Of a DNA stretch of 64,000 nt, positions 971 to 43,890 are shown piece by piece. Each line of letters opens with the position of its first letter. The stretch's first letter is position 1. The DNA is from Hyphomicrobiales bacterium (GTDB taxonomy: Bacteria > Pseudomonadota > Alphaproteobacteria > Rhizobiales > Rhizobiaceae), in assembly GCA_030456445.1 (NCBI GenBank), contig JAKDNM010000003.1, positions 4,981-68,980 on the forward strand. Reading direction: 5' to 3'. The notes beneath the pieces are model-generated. The model was given only the letters and a program-made list of their open reading frames with translations, was not told where the DNA came from and ran no database searches. Made by a program: the position numbers and the translations under genes.

Positions 971-1002
971 TCCTCAATAGTATTAATAAATACCAATTAG
1001 AA
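971..1002. promoter_or_regulatory. Tandem operator pair (TACYnATnRGTA family)
   Basis: TCCTCAATAGTA 971-982 and TACCAATTAGAA 991-1002, 20 bp apart, in an AT-rich patch before the first island gene. Confidence 0.6.
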
Positions 1003-1025
1003 TTGATGCGCCGATCGATGGAGGC

Positions 1026-2690
1026 ATGATGAGGATTTTCGAGGCGGTGGCCGAGGCGCTCGCCGCGGAGCAGATACCGACGATCTTCGGCGTGATGGGC
1101 GACGGCAATATGTCCCTGTGGTCGACCATTGTAGCCCGCAATTCGGCACAGATGATTTCCGCGCGTAACGAAGCCGGCGCGGTCGCGATGGCGGACGGCT
1201 TCTTTCGCGCGACGGGAGATGTTGGCGTCGCGACAGTCACCTGCGGGCCCGGTCTGACGCAGATCGGCACGTCTTTGATGGCGGCGGCGCGCAACCGCTC
1301 CGCTATCGTCGTCATCTGCGGCGAGATTCCCCCAGGGGCGGTAAACAAGCTGCAATCGATGGATCAGCGGCGCTTCGTCGAGGCGTGTTGCGCGCGCTAT
1401 GTATCCATCACCGGGTCGCCCGATCTCGCTCGTGAACTTGTCCAGGCCTTCTATCTGGCCCGGCTGGAATCCTGTCCTGTCGTCCTCAACCTTCCCAACG
1501 ACATTCAGGAGCGTGTCCTTGAAGGCGACTGGCGCTACCTGCCGGCCGCGGATTTCCTGCCCGAACAGACACCTGCCGCATGTGAGAAGGATATAGAGGC
1601 ACTGGCGGACGCGCTCTCCAGTGCCCGCCGGCCCCTCCTCATTGCGGGCAAGGGCGCGCGTCTTTCCGGGGCGGCGGGCGAGGTGGTTTCCCTGGCGCAA
1701 CGCGTCGGCGCTCTCCTGGGGACATCCCTCCAGGCGAAGGGTATGTTCTCCGATGAAGACTGGTCGCTTGGAATCGTCGGCGGCTACTCCTGTGCCGCGA
1801 CGGAGGAATTGTGCCGCCAGGCCGATCTCGTCATCGGTATCGGGGCAGAGATCGGTCACTATACGAGTTGGGGCGGGACGTTGTTTCCGCAAGCGACGGT
1901 GATGCGGATAGATGTGGCTGCGCCGTCGACGGACATACAGGCTGCCGCCGGTCGGCATGTGCGAGCAGATGCCTGCACGACGCTTGCGCGAGTCAACCGG
2001 GAGTTGGAGCACAGACAGGTGCGTGCCGAGGGTTTCCGTAGTGCCCTGACGCGCGGGACGATGGCGCTCATGCCCGAGCCGTTGCCGGAGGCGGCGGACG
2101 GCATCGATCCGCGCACGCTGGCAAGGGCATTGGGCCCGCTCATGTCCGAGAACGCCATGCTTACCTGCGGGGTCGGGCATTTCCAGGGTTTCGTCGCCAC
2201 CTATACCCGTCTCCGGCCGGGAACCCAGGTTGAATTCTCCAGCCAGTTCGGCGCTGTCGGGCAGACGCTCCCGATCGCCATCGGCATTGGTGCCGCGCAT
2301 CCGGGGCGCCCCCATCTGGTGATCGAAGGCGACGGCAGCCTCATGATGAACATGCAGGAACTCGACACCGCCGCGCGTTGCCGACAGCCGATGGTTCTCC
2401 TGGTCTGGAACGATCGCGGCTATGGCGCAGAGGCACAGCGCCTTCCGCTCAAGGGCTTTTCGCCCGCTCCCGCGCAATGGGAGACACCGGATTTCGGCGC
2501 CTTGGCGCGCGCCGTAGGAGGAGATGGCGTGATGCTGCACCATCTCGATGATCTCGAGGATGCCGTGCGGCGGGGGTTTGCCGCCGGAGGACTGTTCGTC
2601 ATCGACGCTCGCGTTTCTCCCACGGAAACGAGCGACAGTTATCGCAAGCTCTATATGGGCCAGCCCAACTTCGCGCCGCTTACGGCCTGA
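1026..2690 (+). CDS. Thiamine pyrophosphate-dependent enzyme (acetolactate synthase/decarboxylase/lyase superfamily)
   Basis: ARNEAGAVAMADG catalytic Glu region, TCGPG motif, TPP motif EGDGSLMM...VWND; RBS GGAGG before ATG. Confidence 0.9.
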   Translation: MMRIFEAVAEALAAEQIPTIFGVMGDGNMSLWSTIVARNSAQMISARNEAGAVAMADGFFRATGDVGVATVTCGPGLTQIGTSLMAAARNRSAIVVICGEIPPGAVNKLQSMDQRRFVEACCARYVSITGSPDLARELVQAFYLARLESCPVVLNLPNDIQERVLEGDWRYLPAADFLPEQTPAACEKDIEALADALSSARRPLLIAGKGARLSGAAGEVVSLAQRVGALLGTSLQAKGMFSDEDWSLGIVGGYSCAATEELCRQADLVIGIGAEIGHYTSWGGTLFPQATVMRIDVAAPSTDIQAAAGRHVRADACTTLARVNRELEHRQVRAEGFRSALTRGTMALMPEPLPEAADGIDPRTLARALGPLMSENAMLTCGVGHFQGFVATYTRLRPGTQVEFSSQFGAVGQTLPIAIGIGAAHPGRPHLVIEGDGSLMMNMQELDTAARCRQPMVLLVWNDRGYGAEAQRLPLKGFSPAPAQWETPDFGALARAVGGDGVMLHHLDDLEDAVRRGFAAGGLFVIDARVSPTETSDSYRKLYMGQPNFAPLTA

Positions 2691-2723
2691 CCGCGCTTAC
2701 GCTCGCTCGAAAGCGGCTATTGA

Positions 2724-2755
2724 TTCCGATTGGTAGTTTGAGATACTGAATGGAA
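2724..2755. promoter_or_regulatory. Tandem operator pair (TACYnATnRGTA family)
   Basis: TTCCGATTGGTA 2724-2735 and TACTGAATGGAA 2744-2755, 20 bp apart. Confidence 0.65.
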
Positions 2756-2807: not shown

Positions 2808-4985
2808 ATGCCTTCAGTTTCCGCAACCGAACGGACGAATTCCCCCGCGACTTATGGCGAGGCCGGGCTCGCACGACTACTTTCGCCGGCCTCGATCGCG
2901 ATCATCGGAGCTTCGGACCGCTCACGCTGGTCGACGACGATCGTACAGAATCTCGATAGCTGCGGTTACCGGGGCAGGCTCTCCCTAATCAACCCGCGCG
3001 GTGGGATGGTGCATGGCCGCCAAGCGCTATCGTCCTGCGCCGAGGTCGAAGGCGGCATCGACATGGGCGTCGTACTGGTGCCCGGCGAAGCCGTGCCCGG
3101 CGTCGTGGCCGATCTCGCCGATGCCGGCGCGCGTTCGGCCATGATCCTCACATCGGGCTTCGCCGAAACCGGCGAAGATGGCGCCCGACGGCAGATGCAA
3201 GTGCTTGAATTGGCCCGCTCGCGTAATCTCAGGCTTCTTGGCCCCAACAGTCTCGGTTACCTCAACTTCGCAGACAGGGTCTGGGCCTGGGCGACGCCGA
3301 TCAAGGCTCCTTCTCGCAGCGAGGGTGTCGGGATCCTGTCGCAGAGCGGAGCAACCGCCCTATTCATGGCCAATCTCGCTTATGAGCAGGATATCGGCTT
3401 GAGCCATGTGATCGCCACCGGCAATGAGGCCGACACCGGTATCACCGACTTTCTTGATCATCTGATCGACATGCCGTCCGTGCGCTCGCTCGCTCTTTTC
3501 ATCGAGACTGTCCGCGACCCAGAAGGTTTCATCCGTGCGGCGGAAAAGGCGTTGCGCATGGCCAAGCCGATTGTCGTCCTGAAAGTCGGCGCCAGCGAGG
3601 TGACGGCGCGTTCGGCCGAGGCCCATACCGGCGCACTGGTCGGCGACGATCGCGTCTTCGACGGCATCTGCCGCCAGTACGGCATTATCCGCGTCGGTGC
3701 GATCGAAGAATTGCTGGCCACCGCCGACATTGCCGCTCGAACGGGCGTATTGCGTCCAGGCGGCATTGCCGTGCTGTCGAACTCCGGCGGTATCTGCGAA
3801 ATAGCTGCCGACCGGGCGGAAGAACACGGCATAGCATTGCCGGAATTGTCGGAAGCGGCCGAAGCGACGCTTCGCGAGCTCATTCCGGGCTATGGTACGC
3901 CGCATAATCCGCTTGACCTGACCGGCGGCATAGATCCGGCTAATTGCGAACGGATCGTGCGTGTGCTGGGCCAGGAGGGAGTTTATTCCGCGATCCTTTG
4001 TCCCTATTATCCGGTGCCGGCGCGAGAGGACCAGATCAGCGAAAGGCTGACGGCGCTGCACCATGGGATCGCGCGCGGCATGGCCGGCAATGATGTGCCC
4101 GGGTTGCTGGTCAGTTACACGAGCACTCATGTGACCGACCTGACAAGGGAGATCGTGGCGCGGGATGCGCTTCCCTACCACGCCTGCGGCCTGGATCGCG
4201 CCGTCGCCGCCCTGGCCGGCATAATGCGCTGGTCGGAACGTCAGCGAAACCCGCCCTCTATTCCGTCGGCCGCTGCGGCCATACATCCCTCGCGGGAAGG
4301 AGCAAGGCCAGGGACGGAGCACGAGGCATTGTCATTCCTGGCGTCCTTCGGGGTTCCGGTAGTCCCGGCGCGTCTCGTGACCACGGCCGCCGATGCTGCC
4401 GCGGCAGCCTTGGAGATGGACGGTGCGGTCGCGGTCAAGATTGCGTCGCCGGATATCGCCCATAAAAGCGACATCGGCGGCGTGATCCTCAACGTCGAGG
4501 GCCGTGCGGCGGTGGAGCAGGCATTCCTTCGTGTGGTGGAAGCGGCCCGCCGACACAAGCCTGGTGCCCGCATCGATGGCGCGGTCGTCTCGCCGATGCG
4601 CCAGGGCGGCCTGGAGCTTTTTGTCGGCTGCACGCGCGATCCGCAATGGGGACCCGTCCTGGCGGTTGGCCTTGGCGGCATATGGGTGGAAATCCTCAAG
4701 GATGTCTCGCTGCGGCTGCTGCCCGTCGATGGGAGGGAGGTCAGGCGGATGCTGAACGAGTTGCGTGGAGCCGGGCTGCTTGCCGGGCAGCGGGGCGTTC
4801 CAGGCGCGGATCAGGACGCCGTCGCGGAAGCGATCGTGCGCATAGGAGATGCGGCCGCGGCATGCGGCTCCGATCTACGTGCGCTCGATGTCAATCCGCT
4901 ATGGGTTCGGGGCAGCCGGGTGGAGGCGCTGGATGCGCTGTTCGACTGGCAGCCGGAGAAGGTCGAATCCGGCGCTGAGCGCTAA
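2808..4985 (+). CDS. ADP-forming acyl-CoA synthetase (acetate-CoA ligase family, CoA-binding + ATP-grasp)
   Basis: IIGAS CoA-binding start, LLGPNSLG, SQSG, phospho-His AHTGAL, NPLDLTG, C-terminal ATP-grasp HKSDIGGV; ATG 2808 preferred to TTG 2760. Confidence 0.9.
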   Translation: MPSVSATERTNSPATYGEAGLARLLSPASIAIIGASDRSRWSTTIVQNLDSCGYRGRLSLINPRGGMVHGRQALSSCAEVEGGIDMGVVLVPGEAVPGVVADLADAGARSAMILTSGFAETGEDGARRQMQVLELARSRNLRLLGPNSLGYLNFADRVWAWATPIKAPSRSEGVGILSQSGATALFMANLAYEQDIGLSHVIATGNEADTGITDFLDHLIDMPSVRSLALFIETVRDPEGFIRAAEKALRMAKPIVVLKVGASEVTARSAEAHTGALVGDDRVFDGICRQYGIIRVGAIEELLATADIAARTGVLRPGGIAVLSNSGGICEIAADRAEEHGIALPELSEAAEATLRELIPGYGTPHNPLDLTGGIDPANCERIVRVLGQEGVYSAILCPYYPVPAREDQISERLTALHHGIARGMAGNDVPGLLVSYTSTHVTDLTREIVARDALPYHACGLDRAVAALAGIMRWSERQRNPPSIPSAAAAIHPSREGARPGTEHEALSFLASFGVPVVPARLVTTAADAAAAALEMDGAVAVKIASPDIAHKSDIGGVILNVEGRAAVEQAFLRVVEAARRHKPGARIDGAVVSPMRQGGLELFVGCTRDPQWGPVLAVGLGGIWVEILKDVSLRLLPVDGREVRRMLNELRGAGLLAGQRGVPGADQDAVAEAIVRIGDAAAACGSDLRALDVNPLWVRGSRVEALDALFDWQPEKVESGAER

Positions 4986-5019: not shown

Positions 5020-6171
5020 ATGTCATTGAACGGTAAGGGCGCTGTCACCGGTATCGGAGAGACGCAATATATGCGGGGCTCGCCGAAGAGCGCGTTCAGG
5101 CTCCAGATCGAGGCTTCGCTCAAGGCGATCGAGGACGCCGGTCTGACGCCGAAGGACATAGACGGCATTATCCCGATTGGCATTACCGGTGCGCCGGCGG
5201 AAGCTTTCGCCACCAATTTCGGCATAGAGGATTTGCGCTTTTCGGCTGTGGCGCCCCTCGGCGGAGCGAGCGGGATAGCCTCCGTCCAGGCGGCGGTCGC
5301 GGCGATCGCGGCCGGCATTTGCAACCACGTCCTTATCCCGTCCGGCCGCAACGTCACCTCGGGTGCGCGCGCTGGCGTGCGCATTCACCAGATGCCGCAG
5401 TTTCATCTGGTGACCGAGTTCGAATATCCGCTTGGGGCCATCGCGCCCGCGCAGCTCTATGCGCCGATGGCGCGGCGCCATATGGAACTCTACGGAACCA
5501 GCAGCCGGCAGTTCGCCGAGGTTGCAGTCGCGATGCGCGAGCATGCCGTGATGCACGGCAACGCGGTCATGAAAAAGCCGATCACCATAGAAGACCATCA
5601 GAATTCGCGGATGATCGCCGATCCGTTCCGGCTGCTCGATTGCAGCCTGGAAAGCGACGGCGGAGCGGCGCTGGTGATAAGCGCGGCCGAGCGCGTGCGC
5701 GACATGCGCCAGCCCGGCGTCGTCATAGCCGGGATAGCCGAAGGGCACCCCGACTCGCCAAGCTCGATCACGCAGCGGCCGGACATGACCAGGCTCGGCA
5801 TTGCCAAGGCCGCGCCGCGTGCATTCGCGATGGCGGGCGTATCGCCCGCGGAAATCCAGGTGGCCGAGATCTACGACTGCTTTACCTACATCGTGATCTG
5901 CCAGCTCGAGGACATGGGCTTCTGCAAGAAGGGCGAGGGCGGCGCCTTCGTCGAAAACGGGAGGCTCCGGCTCGGCGGCGGGCTTCCCACAAACACGCAT
6001 GGAGGTCTCCTGTCGCAGGCTCACATGCTCGGCATGAATCACGTCGTCGAACTGGTGCGCCAACTCCGCGGACAGGGAGGCGCGACGCAAGTCGAGGGCG
6101 CCGAGATCGGCCTGGCCACCGGCTATGGCGACCTGGGCGACGGCGCAATGGTCATCATGCGGCGCGCATAG
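5020..6171 (+). CDS. Thiolase-fold protein lacking catalytic Cys (Ltp2/SCP-x-like, probable aldolase)
   Basis: GIGET start, PLGGASG where thiolases have Cys, YDCFT, NTHGGLLS; RBS GGAG before ATG 5020; followed by DUF35 gene. Confidence 0.85.
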   Translation: MSLNGKGAVTGIGETQYMRGSPKSAFRLQIEASLKAIEDAGLTPKDIDGIIPIGITGAPAEAFATNFGIEDLRFSAVAPLGGASGIASVQAAVAAIAAGICNHVLIPSGRNVTSGARAGVRIHQMPQFHLVTEFEYPLGAIAPAQLYAPMARRHMELYGTSSRQFAEVAVAMREHAVMHGNAVMKKPITIEDHQNSRMIADPFRLLDCSLESDGGAALVISAAERVRDMRQPGVVIAGIAEGHPDSPSSITQRPDMTRLGIAKAAPRAFAMAGVSPAEIQVAEIYDCFTYIVICQLEDMGFCKKGEGGAFVENGRLRLGGGLPTNTHGGLLSQAHMLGMNHVVELVRQLRGQGGATQVEGAEIGLATGYGDLGDGAMVIMRRA

Positions 6172-6180: not shown

Positions 6181-6588
6181 ATGGCCACGACCGACAAGCC
6201 CCTTCCGCACGAAACAGAAGACAGCCAGCCATATTGGGCCAAGGCGAAGGGCGGTGTGCTGGCGATCCAGCGCTGCGCCGATTGCGGCAGGCTACGCCAT
6301 TATCCTCGTCTCGTCTGCGACAATTGCCATTCGCTAGAGGCCGATTGGATCGATGCCAGCGGGCGCGCCGTGCTGCATTCCTGGACTGTCGCGCACCATG
6401 CCTTCCATCCGGGCTTTGCAGGCGATGTTCCTTACGTCCTCGCCACGGTGGAACTGGAGGAAGGTCCGCGCGCGCTTGGCATTCTCGATTGCCCGGCGGA
6501 CGCCGGACTGAAGCCCGGGATGGCGGTCACGGCCCGGTTCGAGCAACGCGCCGACGGTGCGAGCGAGCTTCATTTCGCTCCGGCCTGA
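6181..6588 (+). CDS. Zn-ribbon/OB-fold DUF35 protein
   Basis: CADCG...CDNCHS zinc ribbon, PYVLATVELEEG OB-fold, adjacent to thiolase-like gene. Confidence 0.9.
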   Translation: MATTDKPLPHETEDSQPYWAKAKGGVLAIQRCADCGRLRHYPRLVCDNCHSLEADWIDASGRAVLHSWTVAHHAFHPGFAGDVPYVLATVELEEGPRALGILDCPADAGLKPGMAVTARFEQRADGASELHFAPA

Positions 6589-6686: not shown

Positions 6687-7820
6687 ATGCTGACAAAAAT
6701 ATGCGAAAAGCTCGGCTGCGACGTGCCGATCTTCGCCTTCTCGCACTGCCGCGACGTGGTCGTGGAGGTGTCGAAGGCCGGAGGTTTTGGCGTGCTCGGC
6801 GCAGCCACTTTCGGCCCGGAGCAACTCGAGGCGGAATTGCGCTGGATCGACGATCACGTCGAGGGTCGACCCTACGGCGTCGATGTCATCATCCCGACGA
6901 AATACGATACGGAAGCGGAAGCCGAAACGGGCAAGACCGATCTTCATGACCTGATCCCGCCGGAACATAAGGCGTTCATGGAGCGCATACTGACGGATGC
7001 CGGGGTGCCGGAGCTTCCTGACGACGAGCGCCGGCGCGTGCATCGCGAGATCATGGAAGGCCGGGGCGCCATGACGCCTGATGGCGCCCGTCGCCTGGTG
7101 CGAACGGCGCTTGACCATCCGCAGGTGAAGCTTGTGGTGAGCGCGCTTGGCGCCCCGCCGCCCGACATCGTGGAGGAATTGCGCGCAAGAAGCGTCATGC
7201 TCGGCGCGCTCTGCGGCAAGCCCGCCCACGCCGTCCGGCAGAAGAAGGCCGGCGTCGAGTTGATCATAGCGCAGGGGACCGAGGCCGGCGGCCATACGGG
7301 CGATATCTCGACATTGGTGCTGGTGCCCCAGATCATCGATGCGATCGACAACACGATACCGGTGCTGGCGGCTGGAGGCATCTCGCGCGGCAGCCAGGTC
7401 GCGGCCGCCATCGCCATGGGCGCGGAAGGCGTGTGGTGCGGGTCGATCTGGCTCGGCACGCAGGAAAGCGAGCTCAACACCTTCGAAAAGGAAGCCTTGT
7501 TCAAGGCACGCACCGAGGACGCCGTGCGCCGTCGAGCGCGCACGGGTAAGCCCGTACGCATGCTCAGGAGCAGGCTTTCCGAGGCCTGGGAAGAGGAGGG
7601 CGCGCCGCCTTACCTGCTGCCGCCGCTGCAAGGCATTCTCTACAACGAGGCACATGCGCGCGTCGTGCGCGCCCAGCGCGGCGACCTATTTTCCTTCCCC
7701 GTTGGCCAGGTGGTGGGAACGATGACGAGCGAGACGACGGTCAAGCAGGTCATGTACCAGATGCAGGTGGAATATATCGAAGCGCTGGAGCGGGTCTCGG
7801 CGCTGATACCTTCGGATTGA
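6687..7820 (+). CDS. Nitronate monooxygenase / FabK-like FMN oxidoreductase
   Basis: MLTKICEKLGCDVPIFAFSH start, IAQGTEAGGHTG, VLAAGGI; RBS GGGAG before ATG 6687. Confidence 0.85.
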   Translation: MLTKICEKLGCDVPIFAFSHCRDVVVEVSKAGGFGVLGAATFGPEQLEAELRWIDDHVEGRPYGVDVIIPTKYDTEAEAETGKTDLHDLIPPEHKAFMERILTDAGVPELPDDERRRVHREIMEGRGAMTPDGARRLVRTALDHPQVKLVVSALGAPPPDIVEELRARSVMLGALCGKPAHAVRQKKAGVELIIAQGTEAGGHTGDISTLVLVPQIIDAIDNTIPVLAAGGISRGSQVAAAIAMGAEGVWCGSIWLGTQESELNTFEKEALFKARTEDAVRRRARTGKPVRMLRSRLSEAWEEEGAPPYLLPPLQGILYNEAHARVVRAQRGDLFSFPVGQVVGTMTSETTVKQVMYQMQVEYIEALERVSALIPSD

Positions 7821-10136: not shown

Positions 10137-10184
10137 TGAGTAAACGGAAACCACCGTTTCCGCGAGATATCCGAGACCACCGCG

Positions 10185-32458: not shown

Positions 32459-32461
32459 GAA

Positions 32462-35881: not shown

Positions 35882-35898
35882 CCAAGGGAGGAATACGC

Positions 35899-37125
35899 AT
35901 GAACCGGAAAACAGGGTTGCTGGCAGCAGTCTTCGGCACCGCAATGCTCATCTCGATGGCGGGAGCGTCAGCTCAGGATGCCAAAGAGATCGAGATCGCG
36001 GCCGTCATGCCATTGAGCGGGCCGTGGGCGCGCCTCGGCGAAGAATCGAAAATTGGCGCCGAACTCGCAGTTAAGCAGATCAACGAGAATGGAGGCATCA
36101 AGGCGCTCGGCGGCGCCAAGCTGAAACTCGTCGTCGTCGACGGCGGCGATTCTCCCGACAAGTTCAAGAACGCCACGCAACGTCTCGTCTCCGAGCATCC
36201 GGATCTCGCCGGCGGCATGGGAGCCTACGTGTCCTCGTTCACGCTGGCCGTTACCGAGGTGACTGAGCGGGCCGGTATTCCGTGGCTGACGCTGTCCTAT
36301 TCGCCCAAAATTACGGATCGCGGCTTCAAGCACGTATTCGCGACTTCGCCGACCGCGGTCAAGCAGGCAGACGACGGCATGCCGGCCATCATCGATATGG
36401 CCAAGCAGGCGACCGGCAAGGCGCCGACGACAGTCGGCATCGTCATGGACAACACCCCTTCGCCGGTGGGCTTCACGAAGAACATGCATGGAGACGGTCT
36501 GAAGAAATACGGTCTCGACCTCGTGGTCGACGAGCAGTTCACGCCGCCGCTTTCCGATTGCGGACCGCTGATGCAGAAGGTACGCGCCGCTCGCCCGGAT
36601 TTTCTCCTCCTGCTTCTGACCGCCACGCCCGACATCAAGCTTTGCCTGGAGAAGCTGACCGAAATCGGCCTTCCGCGCACGCGGCTGCCGATCGTCAACA
36701 ATGGCGGCGTACTGGGTTCGCCAGACCTGCTTAAGGTGATGGGCAAGGACCTGCTCGAAGGATCGATCTTCATCACGGCCAACTGGGGCGCCAAGGGCCA
36801 GGAGGATTTCATCAAGAAATTCGAAGACGAGACCGGCGAGAAATGGGTCACGCAGGACAGCATCTCCAATTACGGACACGTGATGCTGCTGGCCGCCGCG
36901 ATGGAGATGGCCAAGTCGGCCGATCCGGAGAAGGTCAACGAGGCTCTGCATTCCATGGACATCTCCGATGGCGCCGCCACGTTTTTTCCGGGTGGCCATG
37001 TCAAGTTCGCGGAGAACGGTTTGCGCGAGGAGGCGCCTCTCGTGATCGTGCAATGGCAGAACGGTGTGCCCGTCACTGTCTGGCCCAAGGAATCAGCGCA
37101 GGCCGAGCCTGTCTGGCCGCAGTAA
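35899..37125 (+). CDS. Liv-type ABC substrate-binding protein
   Basis: Signal peptide, VMPLSG, INENGGIKALGG. Confidence 0.9.
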   Translation: MNRKTGLLAAVFGTAMLISMAGASAQDAKEIEIAAVMPLSGPWARLGEESKIGAELAVKQINENGGIKALGGAKLKLVVVDGGDSPDKFKNATQRLVSEHPDLAGGMGAYVSSFTLAVTEVTERAGIPWLTLSYSPKITDRGFKHVFATSPTAVKQADDGMPAIIDMAKQATGKAPTTVGIVMDNTPSPVGFTKNMHGDGLKKYGLDLVVDEQFTPPLSDCGPLMQKVRAARPDFLLLLLTATPDIKLCLEKLTEIGLPRTRLPIVNNGGVLGSPDLLKVMGKDLLEGSIFITANWGAKGQEDFIKKFEDETGEKWVTQDSISNYGHVMLLAAAMEMAKSADPEKVNEALHSMDISDGAATFFPGGHVKFAENGLREEAPLVIVQWQNGVPVTVWPKESAQAEPVWPQ

Positions 37126-37131
37126 GGATTG

Positions 37132-37168
37132 GACGGCAGGTGGTGGAACTCCTCCACCGCCTGCCGTC
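37132..37168 (+). terminator. Stem-loop after the ABC operon
   Basis: GACGGCAGGTGGTGGA/TCCACCGCCTGCCGTC 16-bp stem with one G-U pair, loop ACTCC. Confidence 0.55.
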
Positions 37169-37277
37169 ACAACCGGGAACATATGGATTGCGGCCGTGAA
37201 CAGCTTGATATCCCCGCCTTTTTTTGATCTTCACTCCCGGAATTGTTCCGAATTAGGCAAATGGTGCGAAACACCCC

Positions 37278-38072
37278 ATGTCCTCGCATGATCCCGTCAA
37301 GACTGCGGCACGCACGTTGGACCTCTTCGAGATCTTCGCGCGCGAAAGGCGACCTCTATCGCTTACCGAGATCGCGCACTACCTGAATTCGCCCGTATCG
37401 AGCTGCCATGCACTTGTGCGCACATTCCAACTCCGCGGCTATGTTTATGTGCTGGACGCACGAAAGCGTGTTTACCCTACGAAACGTCTCGCCACGATGG
37501 CAGAATCCATACTCAAGCATGATCCCGTGCTGGAGCGCGTCTCGCCGATGTTGCACGATCTGCGGGATCTGACCCGTGAAACAGTTCTGCTCGGCAAACG
37601 GCAATCGGATTGGGTCGTCTATCTTGATGTGGTCGAAGGTGGTCAAACGATCCGCTACATGGCCACGCCGGGAGATACGAAGCCTCTCCATTCGAGTGCA
37701 ATTGGCAAGTCGCTGCTTGGCAGCCTGGATTCCCCTGAACTGAACCGGCTGCTGGCGCGGCTGGATATGCCGCGGGTGACACCGCGCACGATTACCGAGC
37801 GCGAAGCACTGAGGGAAGCCATCGCTTCGGGTCGCCAGAAAGGTTATTTCGTCACGCGCGGCGAGAATGTGACCGATGTGATGGCCATAGCAGCCGCCCG
37901 GTCGATAGGCGGAGAATTTTACGGCCTTGCGCTTGCAGGGCCGATGGCCCGGATGGAAGCCAGGTTTGAGCAATGCGTCGATGCCCTGACAAGCGCTGCC
38001 CGCAGGTTGGAAGGGCTTGACAGCGCAGTCCGCGGTCTAACAGCGCGTTCCAGCGGGTCGATTCCGTTATGA
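37278..38072 (+). CDS. IclR family regulator 1
   Basis: N-terminal HTH RTLDLFEIF, PLHSSAIGK, TRGEN. Confidence 0.92.
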   Translation: MSSHDPVKTAARTLDLFEIFARERRPLSLTEIAHYLNSPVSSCHALVRTFQLRGYVYVLDARKRVYPTKRLATMAESILKHDPVLERVSPMLHDLRDLTRETVLLGKRQSDWVVYLDVVEGGQTIRYMATPGDTKPLHSSAIGKSLLGSLDSPELNRLLARLDMPRVTPRTITEREALREAIASGRQKGYFVTRGENVTDVMAIAAARSIGGEFYGLALAGPMARMEARFEQCVDALTSAARRLEGLDSAVRGLTARSSGSIPL

Positions 38073-38177: not shown

Positions 38178-38915
38178 ATGGCAAACGCACGATCCGCCTC
38201 CCGCGCGCTCAGCATGTTCGAAACGTTCGGTGCCGAAGGGCGGCCGCTGCTGCTGACCGAGCTCGCGCCGTTGATCGACGTGCCGCTCTCGAGCTGTCAC
38301 GGGCTTGTCAGGACGCTGCTCGACCGGGGTTATCTCTACGCCTTGAGCCGCCGGCGCGGCTTCTATCCGACGCGCAAGCTCTACACGCTGGCCCAGACAA
38401 TCGCCGCCAAGGACAGCTATCTGCAGCGTCTGGCGCCCTTTTTGGAGAGGCTGCGCGACGATAGCGGCGAGACCGTCATCGTCGGCACGTTGCAGGGCGA
38501 GGCGGTGCTCTATCTCGAGGTGCTGGAGGGGCCGAAGACGATCCGCTACTCGGCGCGACCCGGCGATTTCAAACCCCTGCATTCGAGCGCGATCGGCAAG
38601 GCCCTGCTTTCGGCCGGCGGCGAGGCGCTGTGGAAGAAGCTGGCCGCCCGGCCACTGTCTGATGTGACGGTCAACACCATCACCGATCCGGCGCATCTGC
38701 GCGACAATCTGGAGGAGGGCGCGCGGCGCGGCTACTTCGTCACGCGCGGCGAGAACGTGTCCGACGTGACGGCGATCGCTACGGCGCTGGAGGTCGAGGG
38801 GATGACGCTGGGCATCGCGATCGCCGGCCCGAGCTATCGCATGGCCGAGACGATCGAGGCGCAAACCGGCAGGCTGCTGCAGGCCCGCTCCGAGATCGAG
38901 GAGAGGCTCGGTTGA
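38178..38915 (+). CDS. IclR family regulator 2
   Basis: RALSMFETF HTH, PLHSSAIGK, TRGEN; paralog of iclR1. Confidence 0.92.
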   Translation: MANARSASRALSMFETFGAEGRPLLLTELAPLIDVPLSSCHGLVRTLLDRGYLYALSRRRGFYPTRKLYTLAQTIAAKDSYLQRLAPFLERLRDDSGETVIVGTLQGEAVLYLEVLEGPKTIRYSARPGDFKPLHSSAIGKALLSAGGEALWKKLAARPLSDVTVNTITDPAHLRDNLEEGARRGYFVTRGENVSDVTAIATALEVEGMTLGIAIAGPSYRMAETIEAQTGRLLQARSEIEERLG

Positions 38916-39691
38916 CGATCGCCATGGAACATCTGCGGATATCGTCTTTGGAAGGCCGCCTCGACGTGGTGATCGACCGGCCGCATGCGCGCAATGCGCT
39001 GAGCATCGGCACGCTGGAGGAGGTCGCCGCGGTTTTCACCGAGTATGCCGCGGACGAAAGCGTCAAGGTCGCCGTGATTTCCGGCGCCGGCGACAAGGCC
39101 TTCGCGGCGGGAGGCGACATCAAGGAACTGAGCACGCGTCGCTCCGCCGAGGACGCGGCGGCGCTCTTCGATCTGGGCAGCAGGGCGACGGAAGCGGTCC
39201 GCCGGTTTCCCGTGCCCGTCGTGGCGGCGCTCAACGGCGTGGCGCTCGGAGGTGCTGCGGAACTTGCCGTCTCCTGCGACTTCCGTCTCGCCGCGCGCCA
39301 TGCCGCGATCGGCTTCGTCCAGGCGCAACTGGCGCTGACGACGGGGTTCGGCGGCATCGCCAGCCTGCAGGACCTGATCGGGGTCCGCCGCGCGCTGCGG
39401 ATGCTCCTCGACGGCACGATCCTGCCCGCCGAGGAGGGGCGCGAGGCGGGGCTCGTGGATGCGGTGGCCGGCGAGGGCGAGGCGCTCGAGGATCTGGTCG
39501 CGCGCTTCATCGAGCCGATGCTGAAACGGCCGGTCGCGCTGCTGCGCGACATGAAGGCGGTTGCGCTGGCTGGCGAGGACGCGGCGGGCCGGGCGGCTGT
39601 GGCGAAGGTCGAACGCGAGCGCTTCGTCCGCGCCTGGGTCAGCGAGGAACATTGGGCGGCGGCCGAGAAGGTGCTGTCGCGCGGCAGATGA
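38912..39691 (+). CDS. Enoyl-CoA hydratase/isomerase family protein
   Basis: IDRPHARNAL, FAAGGDI, NGVALGGAAE; second catalytic Glu replaced (GFVQAQL). Confidence 0.9.
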   Translation: MTIAMEHLRISSLEGRLDVVIDRPHARNALSIGTLEEVAAVFTEYAADESVKVAVISGAGDKAFAAGGDIKELSTRRSAEDAAALFDLGSRATEAVRRFPVPVVAALNGVALGGAAELAVSCDFRLAARHAAIGFVQAQLALTTGFGGIASLQDLIGVRRALRMLLDGTILPAEEGREAGLVDAVAGEGEALEDLVARFIEPMLKRPVALLRDMKAVALAGEDAAGRAAVAKVERERFVRAWVSEEHWAAAEKVLSRGR

Positions 39692-39701: not shown

Positions 39702-41339
39702 ATGGTAGCGGTCAGGAAGGTCGAGGAGAAGGCAAAAGCCGTACAGCCGGAGCCGGCAGGCATTGCGACAACGACGCCGTCCGGCATCAAGGCGCCGCGG
39801 GTCGCGACGCCCGACATGGTGGGCGCGGCCATAGCCGAATTGCCCGGCCAATATCCCTTCACGCGCGGCATCTTCCCGGACGGGTTCCGCGGCCGCACCT
39901 GGACGATGCGGCAATATTCGGGCTTCGGCACGGCCGAGGAATCGAACGAGCGTTACGCATTTCTGCTGCGCCAGGGCCAGACGGGCCTTTCGGTCGCTCT
40001 CGACCTGCCGACGCAATGCGGCTACGATCCGACCGATCCGATGGCGCGCTCGGAAATCGGCAAGGTCGGCGTCTCGCTGTCGAATCTGTCGGAAATGGAG
40101 ATCCTGTTCGACGGCATCGACCTGTCGAAGATCTCGACCTCCTTCACCATCAACGGCACGGCCGCGCTGATCTATGCGATGTATGTGGCCTGCGCGGAAC
40201 GGCGTGGCCTGGACCCTTCCGTGCTGACCGGGACGATCCAGAACGACATCCTGAAGGAATATGTCGCGCGCGGCACGTGGATCTTCCCGGTGCGGCCTTC
40301 GATGCGGCTGACGGCCGATTCCATCCTCTACGCCAACCGCGCGACGCCACGCTTCAACCCGATCTCGATCGCCGGCGCGCATATGCGCGATGCGGGCTGC
40401 AACGCGGTCGAGGAGATGGCCTATACGCTCGCCAACGGGCTTGCCTATGTGGACGAGCTCATTCGGCGCGGCGGCGATGCGGAGAAATTCGCTAAACGTC
40501 TGTCTTTCTTCTTCTACGTGCATATGGATTTGTTCGAGGAGGTGGCGAAGTTCCGCGCCGGCCGTCGCATCTGGGCCCGGCTGATGAAGGAGCGCTATGG
40601 CGTGACCGACCCGAAAGCGCAGATGTTCCGCTTCGGCGTGGTCTGCGGCGGGTCTTCGCTGGTCGCGCCGCAGCCGCAGAACAACATCGTGCGTGTCGCT
40701 GTCGAGACGATGGCGGCGGTGCTTTCGGGCGCCCAATCGATATTTACCTGCGCATATGACGAGGCGTTCCAGATACCGACCGAGCATTCGGCCGAAATCG
40801 CGTTGCGCACACAGCAGATCATCGCGCTGGAGAGCGGCATCGCGCGCAGCGTCGATGCACTCGGAGGCTCGCACTATGTCGAGTGGCTGACCGACGAGAC
40901 TGAGAAGCGCATCCTCGAGAAGATGGAGGAGCTCGACAGCCATGGCGGCGCGGTGGCCGCCATCGAGGAAGGCTGGCTGCAGATGCGCATCGCCCAGCGC
41001 GCCCATGAGCGCAAGCGCGACATCGACTCCGGCGCCTTTCCGATCGTCGGTCTCAATGTCCATACCGACGACGACGCCGACAAGGGCCCGAGCGAGGTCT
41101 TTCGCGTCGACCCGCAGGCGAGCCGGCGCGTCCTCGAGAAATTCCAGAAGACGATGGATTCCCGTGACAACCGCGCGGTGGAGCGCTCGCTGGAACGGCT
41201 AGGCAAGGCTGCCGCCGACGATGGCGAGAACCTGATGCCGTATCTCGTCGAATGCTGCCACGCCTACGCGACGATCGGAGAGATGGTCGCGTGCCTGAAA
41301 GAGAACTGGGGCGAATTCCAGGAGCCGATCCGCCTATGA
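39702..41339 (+). CDS. B12-dependent acyl-CoA mutase, large (substrate-binding) subunit, non-canonical specificity residues
   Basis: PGQYPFTRG, WTMRQYSGFG, DLPTQCGYD, GTIQNDILKEY, YDEA; lacks fused B12 domain. Confidence 0.92.
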   Translation: MVAVRKVEEKAKAVQPEPAGIATTTPSGIKAPRVATPDMVGAAIAELPGQYPFTRGIFPDGFRGRTWTMRQYSGFGTAEESNERYAFLLRQGQTGLSVALDLPTQCGYDPTDPMARSEIGKVGVSLSNLSEMEILFDGIDLSKISTSFTINGTAALIYAMYVACAERRGLDPSVLTGTIQNDILKEYVARGTWIFPVRPSMRLTADSILYANRATPRFNPISIAGAHMRDAGCNAVEEMAYTLANGLAYVDELIRRGGDAEKFAKRLSFFFYVHMDLFEEVAKFRAGRRIWARLMKERYGVTDPKAQMFRFGVVCGGSSLVAPQPQNNIVRVAVETMAAVLSGAQSIFTCAYDEAFQIPTEHSAEIALRTQQIIALESGIARSVDALGGSHYVEWLTDETEKRILEKMEELDSHGGAVAAIEEGWLQMRIAQRAHERKRDIDSGAFPIVGLNVHTDDDADKGPSEVFRVDPQASRRVLEKFQKTMDSRDNRAVERSLERLGKAAADDGENLMPYLVECCHAYATIGEMVACLKENWGEFQEPIRL

Positions 41340-41767
41340 TGATCGAAACAGCAACCGAGCCGCGCGCGGCTTCGCCCCTTCGCGGCAAGCGCATCCTGGT
41401 GGCGAAGCCCGGCCTCGACGGCCACGACGCCGGCGCCAAGGTGGTGGCGCTCGCCATGCGCGACGCCGGCGCGGAGGTGATCTATACCGGTCTGCGCAAA
41501 AGCCCCGCCTATATCGCGCGTGTCGCGATCGACGAGGATGTCGACGCGGTCGGCCTCTCGATCTTGTCGGGCAGCCACAAGGAACTCGTCGCCGAAACGA
41601 TCGCGGCCCTCAAGGAAGAGGACGCGGGCGACATCGCTCTCTTCGTCGGCGGCACGATACCGGCCGAGGACATCGATGCGCTCATCGAAATGGGCGTCAG
41701 GACGGTGTTCACCGCCGACATGAAGCTCGACGACGTGGTCGACGCGGTGGCGAAGGCGCTCGCATGA
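41336..41767 (+). CDS. Cobalamin-binding small subunit of acyl-CoA mutase
   Basis: KPGLDGHDAG (DxHxxG), GLSILSGSH, VGGTIP. Confidence 0.95.
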   Translation: MMIETATEPRAASPLRGKRILVAKPGLDGHDAGAKVVALAMRDAGAEVIYTGLRKSPAYIARVAIDEDVDAVGLSILSGSHKELVAETIAALKEEDAGDIALFVGGTIPAEDIDALIEMGVRTVFTADMKLDDVVDAVAKALA

Positions 41768-42885
41768 CAGGTCCGCTCGCCGGCATCCGCGTCATCGAGA
41801 TCGGCCACATGCTGATGGGGCCGTATTGCGGCATGCTGCTTGCCGATCTCGGCGCGGAAGTCATCAAGGTCGAGCCGCCCGACGGCGACATCGCAAGGCG
41901 CGTCAGCCCACATATGGTGGGCGAGCACAACGCCTATTTCGCAAGCCTCAACCGCAACAAGAAGAGCGTCGTCATCGACCTGGCGAGCGAGATGGGAAGG
42001 ACGGAACTTGGCCGGCTCATCTCTAGCGCTCGCGCCTTGCTGACCAATTTGCGGCCGTCGGCCATCCGCAAGCTCGGCCTCACCTATGATGATCTGAAAA
42101 GCTGGAACCCCAAGCTCGTCTGCGTGGCGCTGACCGGCTACGGGTTGGAGAGCCCCTACAGCGAGCGCCCGGCCTACGACTACGTGATCCAGGCGCTGAC
42201 CGGCGTCATGAACCTGACGGGCGATCCGGACGGGCCGCCGACCAAGACCGGCTATTCCGCCGTCGACAATTCCGCCGGCATCATGGGCGCCGTGGGTTTG
42301 CTCGCCAAGCTTGTCGAGGGCAAGGGCGGGCAGGTCGACATCGCCATGTACGACGTCATGCTCTCGCAACTGAACTACCTCGCAGGCGCATGGCTGAATG
42401 CCGGCGAGACCGCGCGGCGCATCGAGCGTTCGTCGCATCCCTATATCGTGCCGGCGCAGATATTCCCGACGCGCGACGGCTGGGTGACGCTCTTCATCAC
42501 GCACGACGATTTCTGGCGCCGCTTCGCCGGAGAGGTGGGCGAAGGGCACTGGCTCACCGATCCGCGCTTCGCCACCATGGCCGGCCGCCGCTCCAATCGT
42601 GCGCTGGTGCTGGGTGAGATCGAAGCGGCGCTCGCAAACCATGGCACGGATGAACTCGTGGCGCGGCTGACGCCTCTCGGCGTAGTCGTCGCGGGGGTGG
42701 AGACGATGGAGCAGGCGCTTGCGAGCGAGCATGTGCGGGCGCGCGGCATGGTGGCGGAGATCGCGGGCGAGGTGCCGCTGCGCGTGGTCGGCAATCCGAT
42801 CAAGATCTCCGGCATGGAGGAAGGGTTCGCCCCGCCGCCGGCGCTTGGCCAGCACGGCGCGCTGGTGAAGGAAGGCGGCGGATGA
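41764..42885 (+). CDS. CaiB/BaiF family III CoA-transferase
   Basis: IRVIEIG, NRNKKS, AYDY, AVDNSAG catalytic Asp. Confidence 0.9.
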   Translation: MTGPLAGIRVIEIGHMLMGPYCGMLLADLGAEVIKVEPPDGDIARRVSPHMVGEHNAYFASLNRNKKSVVIDLASEMGRTELGRLISSARALLTNLRPSAIRKLGLTYDDLKSWNPKLVCVALTGYGLESPYSERPAYDYVIQALTGVMNLTGDPDGPPTKTGYSAVDNSAGIMGAVGLLAKLVEGKGGQVDIAMYDVMLSQLNYLAGAWLNAGETARRIERSSHPYIVPAQIFPTRDGWVTLFITHDDFWRRFAGEVGEGHWLTDPRFATMAGRRSNRALVLGEIEAALANHGTDELVARLTPLGVVVAGVETMEQALASEHVRARGMVAEIAGEVPLRVVGNPIKISGMEEGFAPPPALGQHGALVKEGGG

Positions 42886-43778
42886 ACGCGCGGGCGCAGA
42901 TGACGCTCGACAGGCGCGCGCTCGGACGGGCTCTGTCGCGCGCGGCCAATGCCAGCGTGGAGGAGATATTGGCGGCCGACGCGGGCGAGGCTGCGACACG
43001 CGCGCGCCGCATCGGCGTGACCGGGCCGCCCGGCGCCGGCAAGAGCACCCTAATCGCCGCGCTCGCCCGTTATCGTCTGGAGCACGCCGGGCGTGTCGCT
43101 ATCATCGCCGTCGATCCGTCGAGCTCGAAAACGCATGGTTCGGTGCTTGGGGACCGCATCCGCATGGACCGCCTCGTCGACGATCCGCGGGTCTACATCC
43201 GCTCGCTGGCGAGCCGTGGCGCCAGTGACGGGCTGGCGGAGAACCTGCCCGAGATCCTGGCCGTGCTCGATGATTTCGGCTTCGACGAGATCATCCTCGA
43301 GACGGTCGGCGTCGGCCAGTCGGAATTCGCCGTGCGCGACCTTGTCGATATCGAGCTTCTGGTGATGGCGCCGGGCGCGGGCGATCAGATCCAGGCCATG
43401 AAGGCGGGCATCATCGAGACGGCCGACATCTATGTGGTCAACAAGGCCGACCAGCCCGGCGCGGCGCGCGCCGAAACCGAATTGCGCGCAATCCTGACGA
43501 TGACAGCCGGCTCCGCGCCCGTGCCGCCGATCATCAGGGTTCAGGCGGACACCGGTGAGAAGATGGATGAACTCGATGCAGCGATCGAGGATTGCGTGCG
43601 CCGCCGCAAGGAGGGGGACGCCGATGCGGTGAGGCGCGGGCGCCATCGCGTCAAGGGTCTCATCGTGCGCCGCCTGAACGAAGTTCTCTTGGATATGCCT
43701 GTCGCCTTGGAGGGCCGGCCGATCCGGGAAGTCTACGACGCGGTCATGGACACGCTGTCGCAACGCACGGGGCCGTGA
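42882..43778 (+). CDS. meaB: MeaB/ArgK-type G3E GTPase, mutase chaperone
   Basis: GPPGAGKST, VDPSS, GDRIRM, ETVGVGQSE, VNKAD. Confidence 0.92.
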   Translation: MNARAQMTLDRRALGRALSRAANASVEEILAADAGEAATRARRIGVTGPPGAGKSTLIAALARYRLEHAGRVAIIAVDPSSSKTHGSVLGDRIRMDRLVDDPRVYIRSLASRGASDGLAENLPEILAVLDDFGFDEIILETVGVGQSEFAVRDLVDIELLVMAPGAGDQIQAMKAGIIETADIYVVNKADQPGAARAETELRAILTMTAGSAPVPPIIRVQADTGEKMDELDAAIEDCVRRRKEGDADAVRRGRHRVKGLIVRRLNEVLLDMPVALEGRPIREVYDAVMDTLSQRTGP

Positions 43779-43797
43779 GGCTCCGCGTCAACGGGCG

Positions 43798-43890
43798 CTT
43801 TGTCGCCAGTTCCAAGATTGTCCTCTCGCCGCGGATCGCCTCAAGCGCAACCTTAGAGCCGGGCGGGAGTCCATCTGTCCGGCCACCGCA
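43798..43890 (-). mobile_element. IS3-family remnant (terminal IR plus OrfA fragment)
   Basis: Minus strand 43854-43798 encodes KVALEAIRGERTILELATK (IS3 OrfA N-terminal helix); 43890-43865 TGCGGTGGCCGGACAGATGGACTCCC begins with TG like an IS3 left end. Confidence 0.7.

Follow-up and report, generated by a model that had tools for sequence, protein, structure and literature searches.

A three-module mosaic island in a Hyphomicrobiales bacterium that probably degrades branched or ring-bearing organic acids as CoA esters

The DNA analysed here (the window) is a 64-kb stretch of contig JAKDNM010000003.1 from a Hyphomicrobiales bacterium (G+C 63%), in which an initial annotation had described a co-oriented island for the catabolism of CoA thioesters. 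Open reading frames (ORFs), chosen by their third-position G+C (GC3) and then scanned with Pfam, formed between positions 1026 and 43778 an unbroken series of 36 genes (g01-g36, Table 1), all on the plus strand as annotated, and each minus-strand ORF within this interval overlapped a plus-strand gene with a strong Pfam match. The announced enzymes were recovered: two CoA ligases, three CaiB/BaiF (family-III) proteins, three thiolase-fold proteins without the nucleophilic Cys, an acyl-CoA dehydrogenase (ACAD) of the long-chain (LCAD) type, two crotonases, a flavin-containing monooxygenase (FMO), a zinc alcohol dehydrogenase (Zn-ADH), an aldehyde dehydrogenase (ALDH), an oxoprolinase-family protein, a split B12 mutase with MeaB, and three binding proteins (two DctP, one Liv-type). 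The DUF35 partners of the thiolase-fold proteins are two, not three, and the earlier list was extended by a thiamine pyrophosphate (TPP) enzyme, an NMO-family flavoprotein, a PF04199 ('cyclase') protein, a CMD protein, a HIBADH-like dehydrogenase, one TetR and two IclR regulators. Comparison with other genomes resolved the island into three conserved gene modules, a mosaic and not one operon: Module I (g01-g20, 1026-24323), Module II (g21-g30) and Module III (g31-g36).

Table 1. Genes, operator-like sites and borders of the island (positions in the window).
Feature	Position	Strand	Basis
Left boundary: aqpS-type aquaglyceroporin gene of ars operon	1-802	+	Pfam MIP match; blastn
Operator-like site ATACCAATTAGAAT, 23 bp upstream of g01	990-1003	.	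motif search
g01: TPP-dependent enzyme, acetolactate-synthase-like	1026-2690	+	Pfam TPP_enzyme N/M/C
g02: ADP-forming acyl-CoA synthetase	2808-4985	+	Pfam CoA_binding_2, Succ_CoA_lig, ATP-grasp_5
g03 (thlA): predicted Sal-type Cys-less thiolase-fold retro-aldolase	5020-6171	+	PDB matches
g04: DUF35 partner of thlA	6181-6588	+	Pfam zf-ChsH2, OB_ChsH2_C
g05: NMO/FabK-family FMN oxidoreductase	6687-7820	+	Pfam NMO
g06 (ECHa): enoyl-CoA hydratase, EchA19-like	7830-8594	+	Pfam ECH_1
g07: orphan TRAP solute-binding protein, DctP family	8745-9794	+	Pfam DctP
ATACCGATTGGTAT copy used as search pattern (exact by construction)	10124-10137	.	47 bp upstream of g08
g08-g10: AMP-forming ligase, PF04199 cyclase-family metal hydrolase, family-III CoA-transferase 1	10185-13837	+	Pfam
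g08: AMP-forming acyl-CoA ligase	10185-11771	+	Pfam
g10: family-III CoA-transferase 1 (CaiB1)	12665-13837	+	Pfam
g11-g13: Cys-less thiolase-fold thlB (13828-14985) and thlC (14982-16160), zinc-less DUF35 (16174-16626)	13828-16626	+	Pfam, alignment
g14: LCAD/IVD-type acyl-CoA dehydrogenase	16669-17889	+	best solved relative human LCAD, E 7e-126
g15: TetR regulator (TetR_C_24)	17941-18600	+	Pfam
Operator-like site over the TetR gene's own start	17945-17958	.	motif search
g16-g19: family-III CoA-transferase 2, complete TRAP transporter DctPQM (g17-g19)	18634-22797	+	Pfam
g16: family-III CoA-transferase 2 (CaiB2)	18634-19815	+	Pfam
g20: class-B flavin-containing monooxygenase, last gene of Module I	22956-24323	+	Pfam FMO-like, 213.6 bits
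g21-g24: Zn-ADH, CMD (PcaC-like), ALDH, HIBADH-like beta-hydroxyacid dehydrogenase	24371-28533	+	Pfam
g25: predicted fused hydantoinase A/B-oxoprolinase-family ATP-dependent enzyme (OPLAH), 1299 aa	28559-32458	+	Pfam
g26-g30: Liv-type ABC transporter (g26-g29; 2 permeases, 2 ATPase domains, 1 binding protein), IclR 1 (g30)	32462-38072	+	Pfam
g31-g32: IclR regulator 2, crotonase ECHb	38178-39691	+	Pfam
g33-g34: predicted split adenosylcobalamin acyl-CoA mutase, 545-aa substrate subunit and 143-aa B12 subunit	39702-41767	+	PDB matches
g35-g36: family-III CoA-transferase 3, MeaB-type G-protein chaperone	41764-43778	+	Pfam
g35: family-III CoA-transferase 3	41764-42885	+	Pfam
Right boundary: IS3-family fragment, ~58 nt	43797-43854	.	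blastn 86-90% identity

The modules were compared across 12 related loci (cited below by L numbers), ortholog neighbourhoods being scored by tblastn with all 36 proteins. The whole gene set, with all three modules, was found within ~50 kb of one contig (148-197 kb) of a metagenome-assembled genome (MAG), where Module I lies on the opposite strand and the order is permuted; the sub-blocks therefore do co-occur outside the window. Modules II and III are adjacent in three genomes, namely the window, an alphaproteobacterial MAG and, in convergent orientation, the betaproteobacterium Paralcaligenes sp. KSB-10, with Module III proteins only 38-75% identical across them. Each module also occurs by itself in some other genome: Module III in Diaphorobacter, Paraburkholderia and Sulfitobacter replicons (plasmid or chromid records), each time with a TTT, TRAP or TAXI-TRAP carboxylate transporter and otherwise unrelated neighbours; Module II in another MAG (L107), under a LysR regulator; and Module I in L007, L008 and L088, with neither II nor III within +-10 kb. 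The island itself carries a TetR (g15) and two IclR (g30, g31) regulators, and three transport systems across its modules. Thus the single unit of the initial annotation gave way to three modules with four regulators (counting LysR in the relatives), three transporters and separate lives elsewhere, and its co-orientation, real in the window, is local to it, since related genomes use both strands.

Public data yielded no close relative of the window as a whole, only a 10-kb Logan contig and a food-metagenome run matching, and no near-identical DNA in plasmids, where Module III alone matched, at 75-79%. Plasmid tblastn with thlC and the oxoprolinase gave distant matches only, and a metagenome scan with the oxoprolinase gave 31-46% relatives only. 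None of the island's enzymes reached an NCBIfam equivalog cut-off; the models matched above cut-off were generic subfamily or domain models (PRK08252 for ECHa, two mutase domain models, TRAP_S1). Literature searches aimed at a characterised pathway matching the gene sets found none, in keeping with the possibly undescribed pathway first proposed.

The two borders bear marks of rearrangement. To the left, blastn matched the aqpS or 'MIP + ArsC' regions of Sinorhizobium and Rhizobium replicons up to ~position 750 only; the broken arsC gene reported there was not borne out, no ArsC domain being found in the ORFs at 360-980 or 586-996, between aqpS and g01, and the ars operon is cut after aqpS on this side. 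To the right, the IS3 remnant was recovered, its matches lying inside annotated transposase genes of this insertion sequence (IS) family. Relatives are damaged by IS as well: the AMP-ligase gene is split in two in a MAG (L104 2311-3950), four transposase genes lie between CaiB2 and the TRAP genes (L085 2156-6098), and in Mesorhizobium sp. J18 (L084 12016-13162) an IclR fragment and an IS240-type transposase come after the FMO gene. IS-driven rearrangement thus has a hot spot in this region. G+C falls to 0.59-0.61 in 16001-24000 and 32001-38000, vs 0.63-0.67 elsewhere in the window, which is compatible with separate histories for parts of the island. That the modules were joined between the cut ars operon and the IS3 scar, and are co-oriented here by chance, seems to us about an even bet.

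Module I genes recur, in shuffled order, in seven loci of Alphaproteobacteria, Betaproteobacteria and Actinomycetota. In Mesorhizobium sp. J18, g10-g20 (CaiB1 to FMO) are colinear at 72-92% amino acid identity (g16-g19 at 72-86%), after which the contig enters an IS. A MAG contig reads ACAD-TetR-CaiB2-(IS)-DctPQM-FMO-TPP enzyme-acyl-CoA synthetase-NMO-ECHa-DctP, and a Janthinobacterium MAG holds 13 Module I orthologs (56-83%, both strands) with an extra esterase and short-chain dehydrogenase (SDR) beside the FMO. The operon of a Comamonadaceae MAG is compact (Cupin-luciferase-like monooxygenase-flavin reductase-cyclase-CaiB2-ACAD-FMO-thlA-DUF35-TetR), the blocks FMO-thlA-DUF35-ECHa and CaiB2-ACAD occur in a Sporichthyaceae (Actinomycetota) MAG, and Sphingobium has ligase-cyclase-CaiB1 followed by a Shy-like MaoC-DUF35 protein, MaoC, a thiolase-fold protein, ACAD, FMO and SDR. 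Because genes up to 20 kb apart in the window adjoin each other elsewhere, a functional linkage of Module I is suggested. Three versions of the module (L008 6153-9121, L087 14751-15906, L088 747-1235) contain a ChrR-like Cupin_7 protein absent from the window, and in the Comamonadaceae version the flavin reductase is fused to an IclR ligand-binding domain.

The key prediction for this module is thlA, whose PDB matches are 4u4e, TcLtp2 (6ok1, E 6e-74) and CtSal (9myr). Its nucleophile position is occupied by Gly (GGASG), where archaeal thiolases have CASG, and its IYDCFT motif corresponds to Y302-D-C304 of CtSal; the Gly and the YDCF are both kept in five orthologs. CtSal itself has Gly at the nucleophile position, and its Y302-D-C304 catalytic dyad was shown by mutagenesis (PMC12329534). 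The partner g04 has a Cys4 zinc ribbon (CxxC...CxxC) and starts 10 bp downstream of thlA, and a DUF35 gene adjoins thlA in every orthologous locus. In Sphingobium the slot of thlA holds an Ltp2-type protein (YDHF and a second Tyr) beside the Shy-like hydratase; since this is a non-orthologous aldolase of another type, an aldolase role for the predicted thlA-DUF35 pair is strongly supported, and the 'Ltp-type retro-aldolase' of the initial annotation is strengthened. The second set differs: thlB has lost every catalytic residue of thiolases, Sal and Ltp2, and thlC retains the Tyr only, and orthologs of g11-g13 in L084 and L088 (59-92%) conserve these motifs. Despite its lost residues, thlB is conserved at 59-81% beside thlC and the zinc-less DUF35, and it may serve only a structural role within a heteromeric complex, much as inactive partners do in other complexes with DUF35.

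Around these genes, Module I would supply activation, desaturation and hydration. ECHa retains both catalytic Glu, with conserved GGFE and PE motifs, and matched PRK08252 (406 bits, above cut-off) and EchA19 (293 bits, below). Orthologs of the acyl-CoA dehydrogenase g14 are 66-89% identical in seven loci, and those of g15 were found in L008, L084, L085 and L088. The triad g08-g10 keeps its order in L087, L088 and L104. Orthologs in L085 were also found for g01 (71%, adjoining the FMO), g02 (65%) and g07 (73%, after ECHa), and for g05 in L006 and L085 (75-86%). For g01 the best PDB matches were acetolactate synthase (ALS; 139 bits) and an actinobacterial 2-hydroxyacyl-CoA lyase (133 bits); an assignment as 2-hydroxyacyl-CoA lyase or oxalyl-CoA decarboxylase was rejected at 165 bits for HdaclCoAlyACT (cut-off 600), and the NCBIfam ALS models score higher, also below their cut-offs. 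Family-III proteins, linked to racemases in the initial annotation, matched only CoA-transferase models in NCBIfam, all below cut-off and in a comparison covering no racemase models or sequences, and the racemase label has no support.

The FMO, g20, carries two Rossmann GxGxxG motifs (GAGAGG and GPGNSG) and FTGEYLHSHGYR, which fits FxGxxxHxxxY[KR]. Its PDB relatives are 8z12-17 and ancestral FMO5, and its orthologs (51-86%) lie inside the cluster in L007, L008, L084, L085, L087 and L088. As a type-I Baeyer-Villiger monooxygenase (BVMO) it was rejected: the fingerprint FxGxxxHxxxW[P/D] is absent, FTGEYLHSHGYR being of the FMO type, and type-I BVMO structures score far below FMOs. Enzymes with the FMO motif can perform both sulfoxidations and Baeyer-Villiger oxidations (PMC10028610).

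A 14-bp inverted repeat, ATACCGATTGGTAT (arms ATACC/GGTAT), is common to the intergenic regions of Module I and, within the island, is confined to it. Besides the sites of Table 1, copies lie at 2723 and 2743 upstream of g02 and at 5170 at the 5' end of thlA, and a half-site lies at 8596 upstream of g07. At up to three mismatches there were 8 matches vs 1.66 expected, a number reached by none of 100 shuffles; at up to two, a single match was found in 1.34 Mb of unrelated loci. At this latter threshold the relatives showed intergenic matches upstream of DctP (L084) and of the FMO (L085, 9323; L087), a match in the divergent promoter of the Comamonadaceae operon (L008, 6052), and two non-intergenic ones, inside an IS gene (L085 5571) and inside thlA (L008 13878). 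The simplest reading of these data, suggestive only, is a candidate operator of g15, which would join the sub-blocks at 1-9.8 kb and 10.2-18.6 kb into one regulon. A scan for promoters and terminators gave sites at chance level, a second palindrome candidate (CTTACTGATAAG) was not enriched, and neither, overall, was a relaxed 11-mer of the motif.

Module II is centred on g25, whose A and B parts are joined in one chain, the arrangement of the eukaryote-type 5-oxoprolinase. It matched the caprolactamase models CapA (567 bits) and CapB (311 bits), each vs a cut-off of 1000, and its orthologs are 62-83% identical; the NCBIfam matches of g21-g24 were likewise all below cut-off. The order CMD-ALDH-HIBADH-OPLAH is kept in L104, L105 and L107, where orthologs of g26-g30 were also found, and the module core with the Liv ABC transporter is 61-91% identical in the MAG with all three modules and 53-79% in Paralcaligenes sp. 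KSB-10. Variants combine ALDH-HIBADH-OPLAH with a CoA-transferase, an ACAD and a mesaconyl-CoA-hydratase-like protein, or OPLAH-HIBADH with PrpD-family proteins, a ligase, a thiolase-DUF35 pair and a mutase.

The six genes of Module III (IclR, ECH, mutase large and small subunits, CaiB, MeaB) stand in the same order in L001, L002, L104, L105 and L109, that is, in six genomes with the window. The B12 mutase of the initial annotation is real and atypical. Its closest known counterparts are methylmalonyl-CoA mutase (MCM; 1req, 2xij), 2-hydroxyisobutyryl-CoA mutase (HCM; 4r3u), isobutyryl-CoA mutase (ICM/IcmF; 4xc6) and ethylmalonyl-CoA mutase. The small subunit has a Pfam B12-binding match and the DxHxxG motif (as DGHDAG), and the large subunit is closest to HcmA (4r3u, E 1e-147), ahead of human MCM (1e-124). 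In the alignment with human MCM, its RQYSGF stands opposite RQYAGF and its YVARGTW opposite MVRNTY, so that the two MCM ligands of the substrate carboxylate, Tyr89 and Arg207 in P. shermanii numbering, are kept. Its IAGAHM corresponds to ISGYHM, which gives Tyr243 -> Ala at a position that is Tyr in both MCM and HCM and that, as part of a Tyr243-His244 pair, lines the substrate pocket of MCM. All three motifs are identical in four orthologs, and the Ala is present in five of five family members. A plain MCM was rejected on this substitution and on PRK09426 (532 bits vs a cut-off of 876). So was an HCM, best PDB match though HcmA is: of the residues presumed to mark its large subunit (Ile90, Asp117 and a Gln replacing the MCM Arg), none is present, the aligned positions holding Tyr, Ala and Arg. 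The substitution of Tyr243 implies a larger pocket, and the residue pattern as a whole suggests that the substrate should carry a free carboxylate (succinyl- or alkylmalonyl-CoA-like) and be bulkier than methylmalonyl-CoA; an ethylmalonyl-CoA-mutase-like reaction could be one outcome. MeaB (g36) scored just below the cut-off of TIGR00750 (230.2 vs 240.75 bits). ECHb keeps the first catalytic Glu and has Gln at the second position, the second Glu being absent (Gln or His) from four of four orthologs. The crotonase was rejected as a methylmalonyl-CoA decarboxylase of the ScpB (YgfG) type: it is 25% identical to E. coli ScpB, and at the residues that we take to be catalytic there, His66 (of DIHEL) and Tyr140, it has Lys and Thr/Gly.

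Taken together, the island probably degrades branched or ring-bearing organic acids as CoA esters, and we give a probability of roughly 50% to the following route: aldolytic shortening of a beta-branched or alicyclic acyl-CoA, oxygenation of the carbonyl set free, and B12-dependent rearrangement of a carboxylated acyl-CoA. In Module I, under TetR control, the TRAP system would import a carboxylic acid, the ligases or family-III transferases would convert it to its CoA ester, the LCAD-type dehydrogenase would desaturate this ester and ECHa would hydrate the product. Since g01-g20 include neither a 3-hydroxyacyl-CoA dehydrogenase nor a Cys-thiolase, we infer that thlA and DUF35 split the 3-hydroxyacyl-CoA by retro-aldol cleavage into acetyl- or propionyl-CoA and a carbonyl compound, which would be a ketone for a beta-carbon that bears a branch or belongs to a ring. 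A ketone rather than an aldehyde is favoured because no ALDH accompanies Module I in L007, L008 and L088 (tblastn scoring), and, since relatives of the module carry FMO, SDR and esterase or cyclase-family hydrolase and no ALDH, the ketone is best pictured as undergoing Baeyer-Villiger oxygenation by the FMO, after which the cyclase-family hydrolase would open the resulting ester or lactone. Module II would import its substrate by the ABC transporter and form a dicarboxylate through the oxoprolinase-family enzyme, the beta-hydroxyacid dehydrogenase and the ALDH, as suggested by the constancy of the latter two as partners of g25. This dicarboxylate might, by inference only, be handed to Module III, or to the ACAD/hydratase pair in L106; in Module III the CoA-transferase would activate it, the mutase would rearrange its skeleton and the single-Glu crotonase would complete the sequence. 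The best-fitting substrate is a branched or alicyclic (terpenoid-like) acid; it cannot be named. A natural substrate is suggested by the wide occurrence of the island's families among bacteria of soil and water.

Several points weigh against this route. The roles given to thlB/thlC, the TPP enzyme, NMO, CMD and ECHb can only be guessed at. The motif of g20 is of the FMO type rather than that of type-I BVMO, so that, judged by sequence, S- or N-oxygenation is just as likely. Lactams are the usual substrates of oxoprolinase-family enzymes, and their opening gives an amine, yet Pfam scanning of the 36 genes matched no amine-handling family. TRAP and ABC importers point to a small polar substrate, not a long isoprenoid, and with up to two mismatches allowed neither L088 nor L104 yielded a copy of the candidate operator. 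Finally, the one further genome that unites the three modules may be rather closely related, and each module also stands by itself in other genomes, so that one substrate for all three would be a conjecture.

This last point bears on the explanation that survives best beside the proposed route, namely that the modules are unrelated operons for different acids, gathered by IS-mediated rearrangement and co-oriented to no metabolic purpose. We regard it as possible, at well under even odds. It draws on the four regulators and three transport systems, on the copies of each module standing alone (those of Module III with their own transporter), on the restriction of the operator motif to Module I, and on the IS3 scar and the IS elements in or near the cluster of relatives. 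Against it, Modules II and III have stayed adjacent in the window, the alphaproteobacterial MAG and Paralcaligenes despite the divergence of Module III, and all three modules lie within ~50 kb of a second genome in different order. Weak CMD and HIBADH homologues adjoin thlA in L006, and a Rokubacteria locus mixes OPLAH, HIBADH, thiolase-DUF35 and mutase. The opposite extreme seems rather doubtful: a single, so far undescribed pathway for a beta-branched or alicyclic (terpenoid-like) acid, in which Module I would define a widespread non-steroid route of aldolytic beta-oxidation and flavin oxygenation, and Module III would encode a mutase of new specificity for a bulkier alkyl- or dialkylmalonyl-CoA or substituted succinyl-CoA. 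Under such a single pathway, the mutase, with its HCM-like backbone, MCM-like ligands and Tyr243Ala change, might resolve a quaternary carbon. A quaternary-carbon substrate, as initially suggested, is a possibility only, and the initial interpretation is partly supported: the tools of these conserved modules fit blocked (branched or alicyclic) carbon skeletons.

A heteroatom substrate (thioether, amine or lactam), with the FMO as an S- or N-oxygenase and g25 as an ATP-dependent lactamase, is unlikely, as is the order of steps that it would entail by resemblance to anaerobic indoleacetate degradation, from lactam opening through a substituted succinate and CoA transfer to the mutase. The PF04199 family includes amidohydrolases such as kynurenine formamidase, the FMO-type motif of g20 and its solved FMO relatives suit such chemistry, the closest NCBIfam models of g25 are caprolactamase subunits, and one binding protein is of the Liv/amino-acid type. 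In addition, the iaa pathway uses a family-III CoA-transferase and a two-subunit B12 mutase on substituted succinyl-CoA (PMC8360864). However, Pfam placed no gene among the 36 in an aminotransferase, deaminase, amine oxidase, desulfinase or sulfite-handling family, Module III has no IaaF-type decarboxylating dehydrogenase, g25 reaches about half of the caprolactamase cut-off, and the SDR and esterase beside the FMO in relatives fit a sequence from alcohol to ketone to ester. The N-heterocyclic or xenobiotic compound proposed initially found no backing in this gene content, nor in the wide distribution of the families in soil and water.

Least likely, and very improbable, is that Module I degrades a steroid or bile-acid side chain by Sal/Ltp2-type cleavage with an EchA19-like hydratase and a FadD-like ligase, a reading rejected for want of steroid gene context: thlA has the steroid aldolases TcLtp2 and CtSal as its nearest characterised relatives, ECHa is closest to EchA19, the ligase weakly matches FadD3 and steroid-24-oyl-CoA synthetase models and g11-g13 presumably recall the Rv3521-ltp4-ltp3 genes, whereas steroid ring-degradation families (KshA, KstD, Hsa/Tes-type) are absent from the window and related loci, steroid-specific NCBIfam models were all matched far below cut-off, and TRAP/ABC uptake suits soluble acids.

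To return to the proposed aldolytic route, all the enzyme families assigned here are already known, and what appears to be new is their conserved combinations: a predicted non-steroid Sal-type aldolase supercluster with an FMO, and a putatively distinct mutase family with fixed partners. If the route is correct, Sal/Ltp2-type aldolases are not limited to steroid side chains, aldolytic cleavage is a common bacterial way past the beta-branches and ring carbons that stop beta-oxidation, and the Tyr243 -> Ala mutase with its fixed partners extends the short list of specificities of acyl-CoA mutases, enzymes of interest for making branched building blocks. Practical handles are the candidate TetR operator, the three binding proteins and two carriers in culture: Module I is present in Mesorhizobium sp. 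J18, and Modules II and III in Paralcaligenes sp. KSB-10.

Further genes of the window lie beyond the IS3 scar. Directly past it, on the minus strand (44025-47450), are a GFO/IDH/MocA oxidoreductase, a xylose-isomerase-like TIM-barrel protein and a 6-phosphogluconate dehydrogenase, followed (47813-51692, minus strand) by a three-gene CoxSML-type molybdenum hydroxylase consisting of a 2Fe-2S subunit, a large subunit with molybdenum cofactor and an FAD subunit, the large subunit having glyceraldehyde dehydrogenase and aerobic CO dehydrogenase as its nearest models, both below cut-off. The anaerobic indoleacetate pathway has a hydantoinase-like ring-opening enzyme upstream, before which a molybdenum-hydroxylase-type enzyme acts; by analogy, a link of this hydroxylase to Modules II and III is conceivable. 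A FIST-domain sensor and a hybrid histidine kinase with receiver domain follow on the plus strand (51873-54484), with a response regulator of the LuxR type further on (62739-63428, minus strand). What looks like a set for salvage or catabolism of a sugar or thiosugar occupies 54627-59112 (minus strand): a gene of the IF-2B family (methylthioribose-1-phosphate isomerase-like), an APH-family kinase and a fusion of class-II aldolase and SDR. An isochorismatase-family hydrolase (minus strand), the large subunit of an HpaB-type two-component flavin monooxygenase and a DSBA-like protein (59180-62710) are an aromatic-type oxygenase cluster, separate from the island.

Among known systems, the oxygenation step recalls the BVMO routes from ketone to ester of cyclohexanone (chnBCDE), camphor (DKCMO/OTEMO) and cyclohexylacetate, the last through a (1-hydroxycyclohexyl)acetyl-CoA lyase. 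A class-B flavin monooxygenase stands here beside ADH and ALDH, and in relatives beside SDR and esterase; the Comamonadaceae version has a luciferase-like monooxygenase with a reductase; and CoA-dependent removal of a side chain would free a ring ketone. Unlike in those routes, the motif of g20 is that of FMO, and the candidate for the hydrolase belongs to PF04199 and not to the ChnC-type esterases. The order ACAD, hydratase, Cys-less aldolase with DUF35, which dispenses with 3-hydroxyacyl-CoA dehydrogenase and thiolase, is shared with the aldolytic systems for steroids and bile acids (Scd/Shy/Sal-Sad in Comamonas and Pseudomonas; ChsE/ChsH1-H2/Ltp2 in actinobacteria), and thlA has the catalytic pattern of CtSal (Gly and the YDC motif). 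In contrast to them, the hydratase of Module I is the crotonase ECHa and not a MaoC-DUF35 fusion, its DUF35 protein is free-standing, no steroid ring genes lie near, and an FMO, a cyclase-family hydrolase, a TPP enzyme, family-III transferases and TRAP uptake are added.

With the known acyl-CoA mutases, Module III shares the adenosylcobalamin mutase fold, the DxHxxG subunit and the MeaB chaperone, and with HCM and ICM the split into large and small subunits; unlike them, its mutase is always accompanied by a family-III CoA-transferase, a single-Glu crotonase and an IclR regulator. The E. coli sbm/scp operon (scpA-argK-scpB-scpC) also unites a mutase, a G-protein chaperone, a crotonase-fold enzyme, itself without the second catalytic Glu, and a CoA-transferase, whereas Module III has a split mutase with Tyr243 -> Ala and a transferase of family III in place of one of the ScpC family, and its ECHb is only 25% identical to ScpB. 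In the Aromatoleum iaa pathway (IaaL, IaaGH, IaaF), as in Module III, a family-III CoA-transferase feeds a two-subunit B12 mutase (PMC8360864); Module III differs in having no IaaF-type decarboxylating benzylmalonyl-CoA dehydrogenase, and the island in having no indole-related genes. By analogy, then, Module III appears to work like the sbm operon and like the IaaL/IaaGH step, and is a member of neither.

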